DNA from: Oscillospiraceae bacterium
Lineage (GTDB): Bacteria; Bacillota; Clostridia; Oscillospirales; Acutalibacteraceae
DNA length: 64,000 nt
Direction: 5' to 3'
Assembly (NCBI GenBank): GCA_015065865.1
Contig: SVPM01000003.1
Location: forward strand, 4,206 to 68,205
Positions 54,770 to 62,275 of the stretch are shown here, piece after piece (within the stretch, counting starts at the first letter, position 1; each line of letters opens with the position of its first letter). The notes under the pieces were generated by a model, which was not told the DNA's origin, made no database searches, and saw only the letters and a program-made list of their open reading frames with translations. A program made the translations under genes and the position numbers.

Positions 54770-55312
54770 TCATTCTTCCATTTGTTTGCCCAAAAATGCC
54801 GCCGCCACCTGCATCATCTTCACGTCCCCCTCGCCGGGGATCGCACCGCTTTCGGGCAACAGCAAACACACACTGCCGATAACATCGCCCGCCGCAATAA
54901 TGGGTACCGCCACCGCGGCAAAGCGGTCCACCCCTTCCGCGATCAACATACGTTCGCTCTCCCCCGCGCGCGCCAGATGGGTGCGCCGCTGCTCCATCGC
55001 GGCCTCCAACATCGAGGAAACCTCGCGGTCCTGCAGTTCCTTTTTGGAAACGCCCGCCACTGCGATAATGCGGTCACGGTCGCTCACCACTACCGCCTGC
55101 CCCAACGCACGCGCCATCACCTCGGCATACTGCACCGCAAATTCACCGAGCTCCCCCATCGGCGAATACTTCTTGAACACGACCTCCCCATCGTTGTTAG
55201 TGAAAATTTCAAGCGGGTCTCCCTCGCGTATCCTCATTGTTCTTCTAATTTCTTTCGGTATAACCACACGACCAAGGTCGTCTATGCGTCTTACAATACC
55301 TGTTGCTTTCAT
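54770..55312 (-). CDS. spoVT: Stage V sporulation protein T (AbrB-type regulator with GAF-like C-domain)
   Basis: MKATGIVRRIDDLGRVVIPKEIRRTMRIREGDPLEIF (swapped-hairpin AbrB fold) plus a C-terminal half of about 125 aa. Total 180 aa, as expected for SpoVT. AAAGGAG lies 9 nt upstream of ATG 55312. The track ORF continues in frame upstream to 55702. Confidence 0.85.
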   Translation of the reverse strand: MKATGIVRRIDDLGRVVIPKEIRRTMRIREGDPLEIFTNNDGEVVFKKYSPMGELGEFAVQYAEVMARALGQAVVVSDRDRIIAVAGVSKKELQDREVSSMLEAAMEQRRTHLARAGESERMLIAEGVDRFAAVAVPIIAAGDVIGSVCLLLPESGAIPGEGDVKMMQVAAAFLGKQMEE

Positions 55313-55317
55313 ATATA
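55293..55317. repeat. Left copy of the 25-nt direct repeat bounding the island (att-like)
   Basis: ACAATACCTGTTGCTTTCATATATA, identical to 62163..62187. It covers 6 nt upstream, the ATG and codons 2-7 of spoVT (minus strand). Confidence 0.85.
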
Positions 55318-55702
55318 AAAACTCCTTTTCACTATTTAATGGTGTGGAGTTAGTATGTGGAAAGTTGCCATTATTATACTCATTTGACACAATTCTCAGT
55401 ATTTCTTTGAAGATTTGTGCGGTCTCTTCTTCACGCTCCATCCTGTTTAAAGTACATCCTAATTGCTTGATGCCGAAATCACCTCGTCGCTTTTCAACTT
55501 GATACTGAGGAACATCATACATGCGAGCAATAAACGCATCAGAAGCGCGCTCAAATAACTTCTCTAATTGACTCTTGCTCATCCGAAAGAAGTCTGCCGG
55601 CAAGCTCGAAATTGTCAAATGATGAAGACCCAAACTTTTCAAGTCATTCTTAATCATTTTGCCTTCTTTACTTGAATAATCGTAATATTCCTCTTTATAC
55701 AT
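55313..55702 (-). CDS. Island-encoded 130-codon ORF reading in frame into spoVT (no stop codon of its own)
   Basis: MYKEEYYDYSSKEGKMIKNDLKSL...SDAFIARMYDVPQYQVEKRRGDFGIKQL...NSEKEFLY, followed directly by the spoVT ATG. AT-rich island DNA. It is uncertain whether it is translated or what it does. Confidence 0.3.
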
Positions 55703-56043: not shown

Positions 56044-57201
56044 TTAATTATTACTTGATTTTTTGAGCATAACGATTTTTGTCGGTTCGGAATTTTGATA
56101 AACCAGAGTGTTTTCGTTCAAATTCATCAACACTTCCAACTCGTTTGCATGCATCGCCAATCCCATTTCGCTTAACTCCGTCACGAGTTCTTTTGGGGTG
56201 AATACATTATTCGTCAACAAAACATCAACAGCATCAGCGAACATAGTCGGAACGGGGGATAGCAAAACATTATCAAGTGGCTCGGATTTTCTCCAACCTT
56301 TATTTTGCATAATTCTAATTAAATATTGATATTGGTTCTGCGATATAACTTTTAAATCACAACTTCTATACAGCATAGCACCAATAGATACTTTCCACTT
56401 CTTTTTGAGCTGTACATAATAGTTTAGATTTTGAGGATCCAACGAAACGTCTTTAGTAAAAGAACTTTCAGGCATCAAGAAGGCTGCTGCAAATTCATTT
56501 GCTTCTTTTTCCTTCGCTTTAAACTCTTCCCTAGAAAGCGCTTCTTCGTCCTCACTCCATTCATGTAGGAGAATATGTCCCAATTCATGTGCTATATCGA
56601 AATTTATTCTTACCGCAGAATCTTTATTTTTAGATAAAGCGATTAAATAAACATCTCCCTCCGGCATTTCGATATACTGACTAAATGCATCAATGTCATC
56701 CGTATCGGTAGGGAATGTTGTCACAATTATTCCGTTTTCTTCGGCTACACGCATAATATCAGATATTGGCTTATCTCCAAGCCCCCAATATTCACGCAAA
56801 GCATCAGCAGCTTCTTTAGGTGAGGTAATTGAACCTATCCATGCCGGTAAATTCAATTCTGGGAATGTAACATATTCATTAAGAAAAGAATATATCTGAG
56901 CTAAATGCTTCATTTTAACTATTTGTGCTGCTCTATACTTTTTATTCGTTTTCATCAAAGAACGAAAATAGGTTGTGCCTGTTTTTACGGACAAATCACT
57001 ATCTTGAATAAAGTATTGATATGGGAAGCCTAAAGTTGCAGACAATGCCGCAATTCGGTCAAACGGCACATTTTCAATTTTTCCTGTTTCATATTGAGAA
57101 ATGGTTTGTTTGCTCACTTCTATTTTTTGAGATAATTCTTCAACTGTTAATCCTCTGTATTGTCGTGCTAATTTTAATCTATTTCCATTAAATGCTTTCA
57201 T
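56044..57201 (-). CDS. XRE-family HTH fused to an ImmA/IrrE (M78-type) zinc metallopeptidase domain
   Basis: 385 aa. N-terminal HTH NRLKLARQYRGLTVEELSQKIEVSKQTISQYETGK. Central HExxH in FDIAHELGHILLHEW, with the surrounding DUF955/COG2856-like context. Confidence 0.8.
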   Translation of the reverse strand: MKAFNGNRLKLARQYRGLTVEELSQKIEVSKQTISQYETGKIENVPFDRIAALSATLGFPYQYFIQDSDLSVKTGTTYFRSLMKTNKKYRAAQIVKMKHLAQIYSFLNEYVTFPELNLPAWIGSITSPKEAADALREYWGLGDKPISDIMRVAEENGIIVTTFPTDTDDIDAFSQYIEMPEGDVYLIALSKNKDSAVRINFDIAHELGHILLHEWSEDEEALSREEFKAKEKEANEFAAAFLMPESSFTKDVSLDPQNLNYYVQLKKKWKVSIGAMLYRSCDLKVISQNQYQYLIRIMQNKGWRKSEPLDNVLLSPVPTMFADAVDVLLTNNVFTPKELVTELSEMGLAMHANELEVLMNLNENTLVYQNSEPTKIVMLKKSSNN

Positions 57202-57225
57202 AATGCATAACTCTCTTTCAATTGA

Positions 57226-57969
57226 TTATGCCTGTTTCTCGAGTTCCTTTTCTTTTAATGCAACCAACTCTTTTCTGTGCAGGCGATCCAACGATTTCTG
57301 TTTAAGGGCATGTCTAGGTTCACTCTTTTCTTGAACCATGTCGACTTCATTGCTCATAATTGGGCTGCTGCTTTCCAACCAATCTTGTTCGCAAACAACA
57401 TCCAAATCTTTATCCAGCACATATGCCTTAAGAGAACCTATGCGACCATATTGATTCGAAAAAACAACCAGTGTATGGTTTACAGTTTCCTTATTTACAT
57501 GATCTTCAAAACCCACGCACATTTCATCAAGGATACGCTCTATCTGTGTTTCGTCTGCAGGCTCACCAACCTCAAACAAAGATTGTTGTTTATGAGGTGC
57601 TTGCAATTCTGCATTCAGGGAAACCAAGGAACGGATATATTGCGGTTGTTTGTTCACCTTTGATTTTTTTACAGTTTCAAATCTAGTATCACGCATAAAA
57701 GACAATACTAGCCCACTATTTTTATCGAGAAGTAACAGCACTTCCCACATTCCGCGTTTGCTGGTAGAATACAAAACATTGCTATCAGAAAAAGCATTTA
57801 TTAAATTACGATATATAAGGTCCCAATTAAGAAACGGACCGGATACATGGGTTTTTAATTCTAAAACCGCATCCGCTTCTTGACGGTCTTCCCCAATTGC
57901 CTGTGAAAGGCACTCGTAAATTTTTTGTTTGGTTTCCTGCTGAATACCATCCAGCAAAGTTTTTCGCAT
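57226..57969 (-). CDS. Hypothetical protein, upstream partner of the XRE-ImmA gene (candidate toxin/effector)
   Basis: 247 aa and soluble, with no motif I can assign. GGAGG lies 8 nt upstream of the ATG. The stop is 24 nt before the downstream ATG, so co-transcription is likely. Confidence 0.6.
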   Translation of the reverse strand: MRKTLLDGIQQETKQKIYECLSQAIGEDRQEADAVLELKTHVSGPFLNWDLIYRNLINAFSDSNVLYSTSKRGMWEVLLLLDKNSGLVLSFMRDTRFETVKKSKVNKQPQYIRSLVSLNAELQAPHKQQSLFEVGEPADETQIERILDEMCVGFEDHVNKETVNHTLVVFSNQYGRIGSLKAYVLDKDLDVVCEQDWLESSSPIMSNEVDMVQEKSEPRHALKQKSLDRLHRKELVALKEKELEKQA

Positions 57970-58084: not shown

Positions 58085-58118
58085 AAAAGTGCGCCTGGCT
58101 ATTGCCAAGCGCACAAAA
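58085..58118 (-). terminator. Terminator after the TOPRIM-like gene
   Basis: Minus strand: GTGCGCTTGG-CAATAG-CCAGGCGCAC followed by TTTTCT, 6 nt past the stop. Confidence 0.6.
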
Positions 58119-58123
58119 GGTCA

Positions 58124-58861
58124 TTAGATATTAATCAATTCTTTAAAACAATCATTTAGAATTTGGGACCTTTCCCAATTTATCGATTTAAGTTGCTCAT
58201 CAATAAGACTGAACACTTTTTCTGGATACAAAACTGCCAGAGATACTCCTAATTTGGTTTTTAATTTCAATCTTTCCGATGTCATTATCTCAGCAGCGTC
58301 AGGAGATATTTCCTCAACAAAAGATTTGCTTTTATCGACCAAATTTCCTCTGTATGTATCTTCTGACAATGCATCCATCAGCAAATTTTCCAAAGCTCCC
58401 TGCTTTGAATGAGGAATTACGACCCCAAGCGTACAGCACTGCGCATCTTGGCCAAAACTGTTTTCAAAAGAATTCATCATCCATGTTCCATCAACCAAAC
58501 TTGTAATACACGGTAAAAGATTGTCCGAAAAATATTTTTCGATTTCTTCAATTTCTCTATTATCACGATCAATTACAAAAGCTATTTTGTATTCAGTTTC
58601 CTCGTTTTCTGATTCTAAAATATAGCTTTCAACATGTTCTTTATAGAATCCTAGAAAATTATCTTTTCCACCAACAGCACAAATAGAAAGTTCTTCCCCG
58701 TCCGCATTTTTGTAATGACCAATAAACTCGTTATCTGCATCAGGATGGGCAATCTTAAATTTAGTTGGTTTTTTATTATGAAGCCAACCTTTAGTCTTTC
58801 CCAAATAATAACTCAATAATATTGCATCCGTTTTTCCTTCACAAAAAATAATACGCGTCAT
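58124..58861 (-). CDS. TOPRIM-like (RloB/DUF4435/DUF3226-type) putative nuclease
   Basis: 245 aa. N-terminal MTRIIFCEGKTDAILL (conserved Glu8) and KIAFVIDRDN (D98-x-D100) give the TOPRIM E...DxD arrangement. The ATG overlaps the ATPase stop (ATGA). Confidence 0.6.
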   Translation of the reverse strand: MTRIIFCEGKTDAILLSYYLGKTKGWLHNKKPTKFKIAHPDADNEFIGHYKNADGEELSICAVGGKDNFLGFYKEHVESYILESENEETEYKIAFVIDRDNREIEEIEKYFSDNLLPCITSLVDGTWMMNSFENSFGQDAQCCTLGVVIPHSKQGALENLLMDALSEDTYRGNLVDKSKSFVEEISPDAAEIMTSERLKLKTKLGVSLAVLYPEKVFSLIDEQLKSINWERSQILNDCFKELINI

Positions 58862-59967
58862 AATCTCACCTCGAAATCATACTTTTCGCGATTTCGTAAA
58901 ACTTCGCTACCAAGCATAGTTCTAGACAAAGTTTCGTGAGATTCTTTATCGTTTCTAAAGGTAATTACATTTATTGGATCATTGCCCAGTGCTTTATGAC
59001 TATATCCTTGTGTTGTCAGCAATGCATCAATAGCTTCTTGGCTATGAGTAGTAATGAATAATTGAACATTATATTTTTCACAAGCCATAAACAAGAACGA
59101 AAAAATATCTTTATAATACTTGCTATGAATAGAAGTTTCAATTTCATCAATCATCAAAATACCATCTTTTGCCGCAGCAATACCATTAGTTAATGAAATC
59201 ACCTTTTTTATACCATCGCCATACGTAGACAAAGGCATTGTCCCTAATTTTTTGTGATATAAACATTCGATTGGGCGATTAGAAAATTCGTTTTTGATAT
59301 ACAAAATATCCATAATATCTTCATCAAACAGTTGTAACAAATAGACGCATAATTCCTTATATGATGATGATCTAACTATATTGGATATATTATTTCCTGA
59401 TAAGTGTTTTGCCGGTGAAAGATAAGAAATGTTTATATAATTTCTTCTTTCTCTTGGTAAATCATTAAATCTTGTAAATCCTGTAAATTCTATAGGAAAT
59501 GAATCAAAATTCGAATTGATCGCAAATTTATAAACACCATCAAAGCACATCGTTTCAACTTCTTGGGGTTCATAATTTTCTGTTCTGTCAAAACGAGTTT
59601 TTCTAAAATCGATAGAGTTCTTATCAATTAAAATATTTTTAGTTTCTCCAAGTAATTCTAAATCTATTTCCCCGATGGGACCATATGCTGAAACGCCCAT
59701 GTGAAAATCATCTTGAGGCAACATGTTTAGAAAACTATCAAATAATGATTGAGAATAAAACCCCGATGCGTCTTCTCTCATCCTCGAAGTCTTAAGCACA
59801 TTATATAAATACATTGGGTTTTTAAATAAAGAAATAGCTTCCAGTATGCTGGTTTTTCCGGAATTGTTGTCCCCTGCAATAATATTGAAATGATTTAAGT
59901 TGTCAAGCCTTAAACCACGTATACCTCTAAACGCATGTATATTTAATGAATTAATATAAATAGCCAC
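58858..59967 (-). CDS. ABC/SMC-like AAA ATPase (AAA_21/OLD-ATPase type)
   Basis: 369 aa. Walker A AGDNNSGKTS (K38), signature-like LSTYGDGIKK, Walker B GILMIDEIETSIH, H-loop FITTHS. GTG start one nt after the HTH stop, with GAGGAGG 9 nt upstream. Confidence 0.8.
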   Translation of the reverse strand: MAIYINSLNIHAFRGIRGLRLDNLNHFNIIAGDNNSGKTSILEAISLFKNPMYLYNVLKTSRMREDASGFYSQSLFDSFLNMLPQDDFHMGVSAYGPIGEIDLELLGETKNILIDKNSIDFRKTRFDRTENYEPQEVETMCFDGVYKFAINSNFDSFPIEFTGFTRFNDLPRERRNYINISYLSPAKHLSGNNISNIVRSSSYKELCVYLLQLFDEDIMDILYIKNEFSNRPIECLYHKKLGTMPLSTYGDGIKKVISLTNGIAAAKDGILMIDEIETSIHSKYYKDIFSFLFMACEKYNVQLFITTHSQEAIDALLTTQGYSHKALGNDPINVITFRNDKESHETLSRTMLGSEVLRNREKYDFEVRL

Positions 59968-59968
59968 T

Positions 59969-60271
59969 TTATATTTCCTCCTCTTCTAAAAATTCGATAG
60001 ACATTCGCATGTTTAACCCATCTGCTATTCTTTTTAATATGACGATACTCGGAATATATCTTCCGTTTTCGATCTTGCTTATATTTGCCTGTGAAATGCC
60101 AGTAATAATAGCCAAGTCCTTTTGAGATAAATCTTTTGATTTTCTAATTCTCACAATAGATTCTCTTACTTCTTTCAATATGTCATATTCTTCCACTTCA
60201 ACGGGGGATTCGTCTATTTGTATTTCTGCATTTTTTAATTTTTCTGCAAGAATTCTTTGAAAGTCACTCAT
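59969..60271 (-). CDS. XRE-family helix-turn-helix regulator (100 aa)
   Basis: IRKSKDLSQKDLAIITGISQANISKIENGRYIPSIVILKRIADGL. AAAGGGG lies 7 nt upstream of the ATG. First gene of the three-gene operon. Confidence 0.8.
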   Translation of the reverse strand: MSDFQRILAEKLKNAEIQIDESPVEVEEYDILKEVRESIVRIRKSKDLSQKDLAIITGISQANISKIENGRYIPSIVILKRIADGLNMRMSIEFLEEEEI

Positions 60272-60294: not shown

Positions 60295-60323
60295 ATTATA
60301 ACGCAACAGCTTTAAAAAATCAA
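60295..60323 (-). promoter_or_regulatory. Sigma-A-type promoter of the HTH-ATPase-TOPRIM operon
   Basis: Minus strand: TTGATT (60323..60318), 17-nt spacer, TATAAT (60300..60295). The -35 lies 3 nt from the 55-nt palindrome. Confidence 0.55.
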
Positions 60324-60326
60324 TAG

Positions 60327-60381
60327 AAAATATATCAAATATGCAATATTTTTAAAAAATATTGCATATTTGATATATTTT
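60327..60381. promoter_or_regulatory. 55-nt perfect palindrome (candidate operator) in the divergent intergenic region
   Basis: AAAATATATCAAATATGCAATATTTTT-A-AAAAATATTGCATATTTGATATATTTT. The 27-nt arms were checked base by base around the centre at 60354. Confidence 0.6.
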
Positions 60382-60554
60382 GTGCGTTTGAAGATAGAAA
60401 TCCATATACTATTTTAATTGTGTACTCACCAAATATATTATATGAATTGGCGTTACAAATTGTGTTGTTATTATCTGTATTTTGAGGAGATTTATACTGC
60501 ATGAATTTACTTTTGAAATGAAATATGACATAATAAATTAAGTGAGGTGATTTT

Positions 60555-61040
60555 ATGAAAGCTAAAGCACTTTTATCTGCAATTACAGGTTTCTTTTTTG
60601 GCTTAATTACATATTTCTTATTGCAATATTTAGAAAAGGATGGCGCTCTTTTAATTTCTGTTTTTGGAGGATTGTTGTTCTATATTTTGTTATTTGTATT
60701 TCTTCTTGTTTATGGGAAGATTATGGATAAAAAGTATGCAAAATTTGAAAAAGAAATAACCTCTCCTGTTTTTTATAAAACCAATGGTAATTTTAACTTG
60801 GGAAACGGCAAAGTTAAAAACGGCAATATATATTTTTGCGAAGCCGGCATTGTTTGCTTATGCCTTGATGAAAAACCATATACATTGGATGAAATATTAT
60901 TACAAGACATTGACCATTATCAATTTGATGATATTCACCTAAACATTTTTGCTAAAGACGGAAGGCTATTTGTTATTACACTTCCAGATGCCAAGAATGT
61001 TATAAAAACCTTAAATGAAAAAGATTGGATAGAGTTTTAA
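60555..61040 (+). CDS. Hypothetical membrane protein (2 TM + small beta-rich, PH/GRAM-like C-domain)
   Basis: 161 aa. TMs LLSAITGFFFGLITYFLL and LISVFGGLLFYILLFVFLLVY, then NGNIYFCEAGIVCLCLDEKPYTL...HLNIFAKDGRLFVITLPDAKNVIKTL. GAGGTG lies 5 nt upstream of the ATG. Confidence 0.55.
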   Translation: MKAKALLSAITGFFFGLITYFLLQYLEKDGALLISVFGGLLFYILLFVFLLVYGKIMDKKYAKFEKEITSPVFYKTNGNFNLGNGKVKNGNIYFCEAGIVCLCLDEKPYTLDEILLQDIDHYQFDDIHLNIFAKDGRLFVITLPDAKNVIKTLNEKDWIEF

Positions 61041-61059
61041 TTGCAAAGGCGGTGATTTT

Positions 61060-61998
61060 GTGGAAGGTATGTTTCTTCGCAAGAAATTTAACATTTGGCT
61101 TTTTCTATTGTTTGCTTGTGGCTTGTTTTTTATCGGTCTATATATTTTTCTAAATATAGTTGACCCGAAAGCAACCAGTGAATTATTAACCTTTTTGATT
61201 ATGGGCATTCTTATTATTTTGGTTGTAATTCCGTCTTGGCTGTTAAATTTCGGGGCGTTTATTCACATTGATGAAGATTCAATCAAAGCAAAGTACCATT
61301 GGTTTGGTAAAATTGATTGCAAACTTTCGGATGTGACTTTTGCCGTAGCACGAGTTAACACCTTAATTATTCAATTAAAAGACGGTAAAACCCACACCAT
61401 AATGGGTATTGAGAATTCTTGGCCACTCGCTTCAATTATTCGACGGAATATTCCATTTGAGGTAACTGAACAACCTGAAATACTGATGGAAAAGTTAAAC
61501 AACTTAAAAGCGACCAAAAAGAATGGGCTTATATATGTTTGTTCCGGTGTTGCATTAATGTTTGTCATTGTTTTTGTTACAGTATTCTTGACCGGCGAAA
61601 GAGAAATGCACGAATTCAGCAACATTGATTGGACAATATTCGCCATTATGGTTGCAACAGAAATTGCAACAGCTGTTGCTACATTCTATTTTGCAGGGAA
61701 AACAGGAAAGAATAATATTCCGATCGAAAAGTTGCAATATGAAATTCAACGAAGAATCATTGAAACCCAACCATTGTTGCCCGGTTTTGTTATAGCCGTT
61801 TATACGGATGAAAATTATACGGGACGCATTACTTTATTTGGATATCCACACGATAGTGCTGTTTATTATTCGGTGCAAGAATTCGATTCTGATTACACTC
61901 TTTTTAGAGCATACACATCTGATGTCTATGGTAGTCAAGAAGAGTTGCCGGCTGATTTCGAAACTTTGATTGACATAACAGATAAAGTATTACATTAA
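61060..61998 (+). CDS. Hypothetical membrane protein (2 TM + PH/GRAM-like module + 2 TM + C-terminal soluble domain)
   Basis: 312 aa. GTG start in the context GGCGGTGATTTTGTG, which mirrors GAGGTGATTTTATG of the previous gene. LIIQLKDGKTHTIMGIENSWPLASII parallels NIFAKDGRLFVITLPDAKNVIKTL. Confidence 0.5.
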   Translation: MEGMFLRKKFNIWLFLLFACGLFFIGLYIFLNIVDPKATSELLTFLIMGILIILVVIPSWLLNFGAFIHIDEDSIKAKYHWFGKIDCKLSDVTFAVARVNTLIIQLKDGKTHTIMGIENSWPLASIIRRNIPFEVTEQPEILMEKLNNLKATKKNGLIYVCSGVALMFVIVFVTVFLTGEREMHEFSNIDWTIFAIMVATEIATAVATFYFAGKTGKNNIPIEKLQYEIQRRIIETQPLLPGFVIAVYTDENYTGRITLFGYPHDSAVYYSVQEFDSDYTLFRAYTSDVYGSQEELPADFETLIDITDKVLH

Positions 61999-62119: not shown

Positions 62120-62182
62120 TCAGGCGGTTTGCCCTAAAATAACGCATTCCTCTATACGACGAACAATACCTGTTGCTTTCAT
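62120..62182 (-). pseudogene. Orphaned 5' remnant of spoVT (20 codons) left next to the native upstream region
   Basis: The minus strand reads AAGGAG-N10-ATG AAA GCA ACA GGT ATT GTT CGT CGT ATA GAG GAA... = MKATGIVRRIEECVILGQTA*. The first 10 residues match SpoVT and the sequence then diverges into island DNA. Confidence 0.55.
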
Positions 62183-62187
62183 ATATA
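62163..62187. repeat. Right copy of the 25-nt direct repeat bounding the island (att-like)
   Basis: ACAATACCTGTTGCTTTCATATATA, identical to 55293..55317. Confidence 0.85.
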
Positions 62188-62275
62188 CATTTCTCCTTAA
62201 ATTACAAATTGTGTTATTATGGGAGAAATACGCCGTAAGAACTAATTTTTCGAATTTGCTAACATACGAAAAGCA

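Follow-up and report, generated by a model that had tools for sequence, protein, structure and literature searches.

The three minus-strand genes at positions 58124-60271 of the window (the whole stretch of DNA analysed, 64,000 nucleotides of contig SVPM01000003.1 from an Oscillospiraceae bacterium) form a genuine operon encoding a small DNA-binding regulator of the XRE type, an ABC-type ATPase and a putative nuclease of the DUF3226/OLD-type TOPRIM kind. Judged by profile matches, the locus belongs to PDC-M38, a candidate family that already exists in the PADLOC database, and is not a new kind of system. We show that the XRE gene, together with a dyad-rich palindrome upstream of it, is conserved with the ATPase/partner pair across Bacillota, and that the triad is a self-contained, horizontally mobile module. 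By analogy with other pairs of an ABC ATPase with a TOPRIM protein, we consider it reasonably probable that the operon specifies a nuclease toxin, restrained by a sensor ATPase, that acts in abortive infection. What the present analysis adds to the catalogued family is the conserved layer formed by the XRE regulator and its probable operator, the connection between DUF3226, AriB and OLD, and the context of an integration hotspot at spoVT. Modules in which an ABC ATPase is combined with a TOPRIM protein (OLD, Gabija, PARIS, AbiL) are a major theme of bacterial immunity, and the locus offers a compact and well-delimited test case, with predicted promoter, probable operator, three genes and terminator in about 2.3 kb.

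The ATPase and its TOPRIM partner match PDC-M38

The ATPase gene (58858-59967, minus strand; 369 aa, with a GTG start) encodes a protein that matches the PADLOC model PDC-M38A (PDLC04608) from end to end (E = 1.7e-110; residues 1-368 on positions 1-366 of the 367 in the profile). Its partner (58124-58861, minus strand; 245 aa) likewise matches PDC-M38B (PDLC04619) over its whole length (1.8e-75; residues 1-245 on positions 1-240 of 240), and the same model recognises all 45 of the diverse partner relatives that we compared. Gene order and the 4-nt overlap between the two genes are also identical to those of PDC-M38. The PDCs are 145 "phage defence candidates", taken from genes that lie within loci of BREX, DISARM and type I restriction-modification (R-M) and added to PADLOC (bioRxiv 10.1101/2024.01.29.577857), and PDC-M38 is listed among them as a two-gene cassette (Payne et al., bioRxiv 10.1101/2024.01.29.577857); the clade described here differs from that definition in its conserved upstream XRE gene and its palindromic putative operator. 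A full-text literature search found no main-text mention of DUF3226 or PDC-M38. The first-pass annotation of the window had proposed that the locus could be a new subtype, a proposal that we do not retain, since the pair is already catalogued as PDC-M38 and the partner falls within Pfam DUF3226; moreover, the helical C-terminal half that had been singled out as a distinguishing trait of the partner is part of the DUF3226 family.

By its sequence, the ATPase is of the ABC type, Rad50/SMC-like, with an intact ABC catalytic set. It carries the Walker A motif GDNNSGKT (with K38), the signature-like stretch S247-x-Y-G-D-G-I-K-K, the motif MIDEIE (272-277) and the motif TTHS (306-309), and G37, K38, T39, Y249-K254, D274, E275 and H308 are invariant in 49 homologues. 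The catalytic motifs read in both proteins by the first-pass annotation are all present, and they are no accident of sequence, being conserved in the 49 ATPase and 45 partner homologues. In Pfam the protein is assigned to AAA_15/AAA_21, and of the other PADLOC models AbiLi (PDLC02336) matches it almost end to end (5.5e-39; residues 5-343 on positions 2-318 of 340), followed by AriA (5e-18) and by GajA, PtuA, NsnB and HEC-01A/02A (about 1e-13 to 1e-15). The AlphaFold2 (AF2) model of the ATPase (predicted local distance difference test score, pLDDT, 84.7; predicted template-modelling score 0.86) finds its best Foldseek matches in PtuA of the Septu and retron systems (1e-11, the closest solved fold), Rad50, SMC heads and Ts OLD; within the top 50 fold matches, AriA is absent. 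Between Walker A and the signature motif, the protein has an insert (residues 89-162) that is predicted to be beta-rich.

The partner has the motifs CEGKTD (E8) and D98-R-D100. Residues C7, G9, T11, D12, G64, D98, D100, G155-A-L-E158 and K201 are invariant in the 45 homologues, and conservation is 90% or higher at E8, G65 and K66. The window protein scores 28.4 bits against Pfam DUF3226 (PF11536; threshold 27) over residues 3-210. The first-pass annotation had made its assignment depend on profile similarity of the 245-aa protein to TOPRIM families, and such similarity is found: 44 of the 45 relatives are matched by OLD-like_TOPRIM (best 8.8e-8), as many by the PADLOC model RT-Toprim_I-C (best 2.5e-9) and again as many by DUF3226 itself (best 4.9e-11), while the window partner matches RT-Toprim_I-C at 1.6e-5 over residues 4-126 and the NCBIfam model of the retron Ec67 reverse transcriptase/endonuclease at 1.9e-5 over residues 4-110. 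On these profiles, the TOPRIM link of the partner is firm at the level of the family. In the AF2 model of the partner (pLDDT 84.3), E8, G64-K66 and D98/D100 are predicted to lie at or just past the ends of strands 2-7, 57-63 and 90-98, the positions expected for a TOPRIM fold, and the C-terminal half is modelled as five helices. The sole significant fold match in the PDB is PH0156 of Pyrococcus horikoshii (2p62; E = 6.9e-5, TM-score 0.43), the founder of DUF3226. PH0156 is also the top match in a profile search of the PDB, at an E-value of 0.21, in an alignment that pairs E-G-K-T-D, G-K and D-x-D; the two proteins are similar in length (241 and 245 aa) but share only 16% identity, and the TM-score, too, is low. 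A single-sequence search of the PDB with the partner returned design-protein noise only, and a search of viral folds in BFVD with the partner model gave nothing meaningful. Alignment by hhalign of the partner family profile with P2 Old and with a Citrobacter DUF3226 protein was not significant, the single-sequence targets being too weak. The sequence places the partner in DUF3226, with an intact TOPRIM acidic set and a core of the OLD type (E8, D12, G64-G65-K66, D98xD100, G155-A-L-E158), and we presume it to be the nuclease effector or toxin.

A tightly coupled operon

The XRE gene (59969-60271, minus strand; an open reading frame, ORF, of 100 aa) is the first of the three, and the gene coordinates and both junctions are as the first-pass annotation had them. 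The TAA stop of XRE is followed, after 1 nt, by the GTG of the ATPase, and the TGA of the ATPase and the ATG of the partner share the sequence ATGA (58861-58858). The tight coupling is a trait of the whole family. The ATGA overlap between ATPase and partner recurs in 70 of 78 junctions. Of 67 loci, 32 have an XRE stop and an ATPase start that overlap by 1 nt (distance -1 nt), and another 24 have the two at a distance of 0 to +5 nt. The proposal that a run of Glu codons in XRE doubles as the ribosome-binding site of the ATPase gene also stands: the Shine-Dalgarno sequence GGAGG, at 59977-59981, lies inside these codons, 9 nt 5' of the GTG, and codons of the acidic XRE tail coincide with a GGAG or GAGG Shine-Dalgarno motif in 59 of 69 loci, which makes the arrangement a feature of the family.

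A SigA/Sigma-70-type promoter is predicted at 60295-60323 (minus strand), with a -35 element TTGATT, a 17-nt spacer and a -10 element TATAAT; it is a consensus match that scores 10 out of 12, and comparable matches are no more frequent in the region than in shuffled sequence. A strong intrinsic terminator (58089-58114, minus strand), with an 11-bp stem of which 8 pairs are GC and then a T run, begins 9 nt past the stop codon of the partner gene. The next gene, rmrT, has a promoter-like site of its own at 58032-58004. With the predicted promoter and palindrome at one end and the terminator at the other, the operon forms a discrete unit of about 2.3 kb.

A conserved XRE protein and its probable operator

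The XRE protein has a helix-turn-helix (HTH) domain at about residues 41-88 (Pfam HTH_3, 3.5e-13) and matches the PADLOC models HTH_VI (5e-14), capH (8.6e-9) and R-M control protein (2.9e-7). As the first-pass annotation had anticipated in describing a regulator embedded in the operon, the gene is a conserved component of the module: in about 68 of 80 related loci, which were drawn from GTDB genomes (labels L001 onward), a homologue lies directly 5' of the ATPase gene. It is missing from the most distant loci (L073, L074, L076, L077, L080, L081 and L083), from tandem duplicates in Thermoguttaceae (L062 and L063) and from pairs on proteobacterial plasmids. Across 70 loci, a motif MSDFQxYL at the N-terminus (the first 8-12 residues) is conserved as strongly as the HTH, and this may point to a further interface that would serve dimerisation or the binding of a partner.

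A perfect palindrome of 27+1+27 nt (60327-60381) ends 3 nt upstream of the predicted -35 element. It holds two dyads of 15 bp each (AAATAT-N3-ATATTT), whose centres, at 60364 and 60344, are 20 bp or about two helical turns apart. Compared with 30 shuffles in each of 70 related loci, the best inverted repeat upstream of the XRE gene surpasses them all in 24 loci; chance would give about 2. Of these 24 repeats, some are GC-rich and lie more than 100 nt upstream, where they are probably the terminators of the preceding gene, and about 12 to 15 are AT-rich palindromes no further than about 100 nt from the start of XRE. In several loci (L002, L004, L006, L024, L030 and L043, among others), as in the window, palindromes of about 50 nt that differ in sequence end 52-56 nt 5' of the XRE ATG. 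This pattern would suit an operator that co-evolves with its regulator, and does not suit a terminator. A terminator had been flagged at the palindrome by a scan; we reject this, because the element lies between divergent gene starts, directly 5' of the -35, and has its equivalents at the same distance from the XRE ATG. A search of the palindrome against Rfam returned sub-threshold hairpin noise only. The palindrome is thus probably the operator of XRE, and of the neighbouring features that the first-pass annotation had listed as setting the locus apart, this is the one that we would keep as part of the system; the other, a divergent pair of membrane-protein genes, is unrelated cargo (see below). 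With the HTH gene first in the operon and dyads at what is predicted to be its own promoter, the layout looks like that of an autoregulated gene of the XRE/C-protein type.

Relation to PARIS, AbiL and other ATPase-TOPRIM systems

The resemblance to PARIS, AbiL and RloA/RloB proposed in the first-pass annotation is borne out for the combination of an ABC-type ATPase with a separate TOPRIM-like partner, by the AAA_15/AAA_21, AbiLi and AriA matches and by an ABC/Rad50/PtuA-like fold. PARIS (AriA/AriB; OLD class 4) also splits an AAA_15/21 ABC ATPase from a stand-alone TOPRIM protein, is translationally coupled and mobile, and its effector has a similar acidic pattern, E-x3-D followed by D-x-D/E; the acidic set of AriB consists of E26, D30, D88, E90 and E122 (PMC11464382). 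Anti-restriction proteins act as triggers of PARIS. Six AriA and three AriB subunits form a complex from which Ocr frees AriB, which then dimerises and cleaves tRNA-Lys (PMC11464382). However, AriA is a protein of about 55 kDa with coiled-coil elements, IS1 and IS2, that build its hexamer, whereas the ATPase described here has 369 aa and an insert predicted to be beta-rich; its score with the AriA model is far below those with PDC-M38A and AbiLi, and PARIS has no XRE gene. Moreover, DUF4435 (PF14491, the AriB family) does not match the window partner at E ≤ 0.1 or any of its 45 relatives at E ≤ 0.01, and the AriB model matches neither the window partner nor any of the relatives. A link to the PARIS effector fold does come from PH0156: 2P62 is the top HHpred match of the lactococcal AriB (PMC11381338), which ties DUF3226 to that fold.

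AbiL of Lactococcus shares with the locus the two-gene ATPase plus TOPRIM_OLD architecture, in addition to the AbiLi match of the ATPase, and its phenotype is abortive infection. AbiL and PARIS have been grouped as ATPase plus TOPRIM systems, AbiLii and AriB being without sequence similarity to each other (PMC13064643). Partners of the AbiLii and RloB type, in contrast to the one described here, belong to another TOPRIM family: AbiLii gives no match to the window partner at E ≤ 0.1 and matches only one of the 45 relatives, at 0.0028, and RloB (PF13707) matches neither the window partner nor the 45 relatives. With no DUF4435 or RloB match and a single weak AbiLii match among the 45, the pair is PARIS/AbiL-like in architecture but, by its partner family, a member of neither, nor of RloAB. 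The logic of a sensor ATPase and a nuclease effector is also found in Septu and retron PtuA, the nearest solved ATPase fold, and in HEC-01 and HEC-04, but there the effectors are HNH proteins (PtuB) or come from other TOPRIM families; the HEC-01B model matches neither the partner nor its 45 relatives. The RT-Toprim and HTH_VI matches raised the possibility of a retron. We discard it, because the island that carries the triad has no reverse-transcriptase ORF and no Rfam retron RNA; the resemblance to retron I-C and Ec67 is limited to the TOPRIM part (residues 4-126).

Proposed mechanism and alternative readings

In the picture that we favour, an oligomer of the ATPase, the presumed sensor and scaffold, would bind the TOPRIM partner and hold it inactive, by analogy with PARIS and with the AAA:TOPRIM_OLD toxin-antitoxin (TA) pairs, two of which have been validated as antitoxin:toxin (PMC10440598). 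A trigger derived from the phage would be sensed by the variable beta-rich insert of the ATPase, in an ATP-dependent manner, and the nuclease, released or activated, would cut tRNA or another nucleic acid, so that the infected cell is arrested. XRE would bind, in the form of two dimers, the pair of 15-bp dyads next to the -35, and autoregulation of the operon would then keep the toxic effector low and in a fixed ratio to its partners; autorepression is assumed here by analogy with the C-proteins and with CapH. We have much lower confidence in the target, the trigger and the stoichiometry, since PARIS has a different ATPase insert and a different effector family.

Several observations weigh against this picture. 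The OLD-like_TOPRIM score of the window partner itself, 21.4 bits, is under the Pfam threshold and covers residues 3-25 only, and no OLD, AriB or GajA structure is found among the top 50 Foldseek matches of the full-length partner model in the PDB. The beta-rich insert of the ATPase, in place of the coiled coil of the AriA hexamer, means that assembly may differ from that of PARIS. The paper that defines the PDCs describes them as untested, and in the same study HEC-01, also a pair of an ABC ATPase with a TOPRIM protein, gave no protection against any phage tried (bioRxiv 10.1101/2024.01.29.577857). The association with defence islands is modest, most neighbours of the related loci being housekeeping genes. 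Finally, both dyads lie 5' of the predicted -35, a position that would suit activation as well as repression.

The operon could instead be chiefly an addiction module that stabilises the mobile DNA on which it resides, with the TOPRIM protein as toxin, the ATPase as antitoxin, XRE as autorepressor and no dedicated sensing of phage. An operon that is XRE-first and tightly coupled is the classic layout of a type II TA system, AAA:TOPRIM_OLD pairs do score as toxin-antitoxin in neutralisation assays (PMC10440598), and an ATPase-DUF3226 pair is almost the sole cargo of 4.1-kb ColRNAI plasmids of Klebsiella and occurs on small plasmids of Citrobacter and Acinetobacter as well. However, the ABC ATPase, which has 369 aa and a variable insert, would be a large protein for an antitoxin and nothing more, the family owes its place in the catalogue to members that lie within BREX, DISARM and type I R-M loci, and the triad of the window adjoins RosmerTA; we regard addiction as the chief role as unlikely. 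The two readings are in any event not exclusive, PARIS being a defence system and a TA pair at once (PMC13064643). Far less credible, and in our view very improbable, is a housekeeping pair for DNA repair or recombination, or a decayed remnant without function. RecF (an ABC ATPase) and RecR (a TOPRIM protein) would also fit the combination, and the ATPase weakly matches RecF and Rad50 models; the RecF match, however, extends over no more than the P-loop region at the N-terminus (residues 5-49), the locus is patchy in its occurrence and mobile, and the G+C content of the operon is 32% in a host of about 57%. Decay is opposed by catalytic residues and reading frames that are all intact and conserved.

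The XRE protein, for its part, might be more than a regulator, namely a third functional subunit (a sensor, an antitoxin or an adaptor) that binds the ATPase or the nuclease through MSDFQxYL and is possibly removed by a protease, as CapP removes CapH. The conservation of its first 8-12 residues to the same degree as the HTH (70 loci) would fit such a role, although it could reflect a mere dimerisation helix. The coupling to the ATPase gene at -1 to +5 nt is conserved, the match of XRE to capH is paralleled by a match of the adjoining RmrA to capP (2.8e-22), RmrA carries Peptidase_M78, and the block of five genes (the triad plus RosmerTA) travels together. Yet no XRE gene accompanies the proteobacterial pairs, those of Thermoguttaceae or the most distant ones of Bacillota, so that the core would work without it, and beside the other triads, about 70, RmrT is absent and RmrA-like genes are rare. 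On balance a subunit role for XRE seems improbable to us. A broader and tentative proposal, rather doubtful but slightly easier to entertain, is that the XRE-led triad is a distinct branch of split OLD-like systems, in which control of a DUF3226 TOPRIM nuclease falls to a short ABC ATPase that senses through its beta-rich insert, XRE either couples transcription to the protein complex through MSDFQxYL or is removed by a protease of the ImmA/IrrE type (RmrA, for example, in a CapH/CapP-like switch), and target and trigger are unlike those of PARIS.

If a role in defence and the nuclease target of the restrained toxin were shown, a PADLOC candidate would become a validated system, PH0156/DUF3226 would gain a function, and it would become clear in what way a toxin-bearing module incorporates an XRE regulator of its own. 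The general view of how ABC ATPase plus TOPRIM systems work would stay unchanged.

Distribution of the family

In a full HMMER scan of 1.84 billion representatives, the partner family, counted in clusters at 50% identity, comprises 683 clusters at E ≤ 1e-3 and 224 at E ≤ 1e-30, which is a moderate size. Among the best 150 clusters we found no fusions; each is a protein that stands alone and is no longer than about 270 aa. The 80 related loci come mostly from Clostridia (Oscillospiraceae and Lachnospiraceae), with a few from other groups, and the family as a whole is spread over gut and rumen Bacillota and small enterobacterial plasmids. In one Klebsiella record the ATPase and a canonical DUF3226 protein are nearly the sole cargo of a 4.1-kb ColRNAI plasmid (L091, OW849468.1), and the same pairs are found on small plasmids of Citrobacter (L084) and Acinetobacter (L085); the plasmid pairs have overlapping genes and no XRE, and match DUF3226 at 7e-27 to 9e-44. 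The ATPase is matched by 132 Klebsiella plasmid records, most of them over residues ~245-316 only, and the DUF3226 partner is confirmed on one (L091). A tblastn search with the partner against 50,697 phage records gave no match, and thus no sign of a phage-borne partner. Beside about 40 other triads, housekeeping genes predominate, and a minority of the neighbours are defence genes (PDC-S01, MADS, RmrA, GajA, pAgo-SIR2) or serine recombinases. In metagenome-assembled genomes of Thermoguttaceae, two ATPase-DUF3226 pairs without XRE are arranged in tandem (L062, 1861-5732; L063, 3856-7722).

A genomic island at spoVT

The triad resides in a low-GC island of 6.8 kb. The G+C content of the operon (32%) compares with 53.6% for the window and 50-62% for its host-like part, and the island is bounded by a 40-nt direct repeat, 88% identical between its two copies (55278-55317 and 62148-62187). 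The repeat is the 5' end of spoVT (MKATGIVRRID...); behind the native ribosome-binding site, the distal copy gives a truncated pseudo-start (MKATGIVRRIEECVILGQTA*). The island contains RosmerTA, the XRE-ATPase-partner triad and two membrane-protein genes, and no recombinase gene is found within it. The RosmerTA defence/TA pair (56044-57969) is complete and lies immediately downstream of the triad: RmrT (57226-57969, minus strand; DUF5986) matches its PADLOC model at 1.2e-53, RmrA (56044-57201, minus strand), which has an HTH and a Peptidase_M78 domain, matches its own at 4.6e-155, and a terminator follows at 56028-56003 (minus strand). The segment 55289-60455, which comprises the five genes of RosmerTA and the triad, recurs at 98.7% identity on another metagenomic contig (L087, 1-5700). 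There, too, 5' fragments of spoVT enclose the block, together with a conserved end sequence of about 70 nt, but different cargo follows (Fic, a MauJ-like protein and Cap4_nuclease), which suggests a tandem accretion of cassettes at the same site. The spoVT 5' repeats that bound the island in the window and the block in L087 mark the start of spoVT as a hotspot of integration or cassette exchange.

The divergent membrane-protein pair (60555-61998, plus strand) encodes a protein of 161 aa with no family match and one of 312 aa with a weak match to DUF6560. We reject the pair as part of the system, as it has no homologue in 83 related loci and lies outside the block shared with L087; it is a separate, unrelated cargo. 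A 19-nt repeat (60453-60471 and 62202-62220) delimits this membrane-protein sub-block, and in L088 (23-791) the second membrane-protein gene is replaced by a gene for an Imm32 immunity protein.

At the other edge of the island, spoVT is represented by an ORF of 310 aa (54770-55702, minus strand), in which a normal MazE/AbrB N-domain and SpoVT_C are fused in frame to about 130 codons derived from the island. The true start of SpoVT is probably M131 (ATG at 55312-55310). The 310-aa form is also called by gene callers on L088 and L089.

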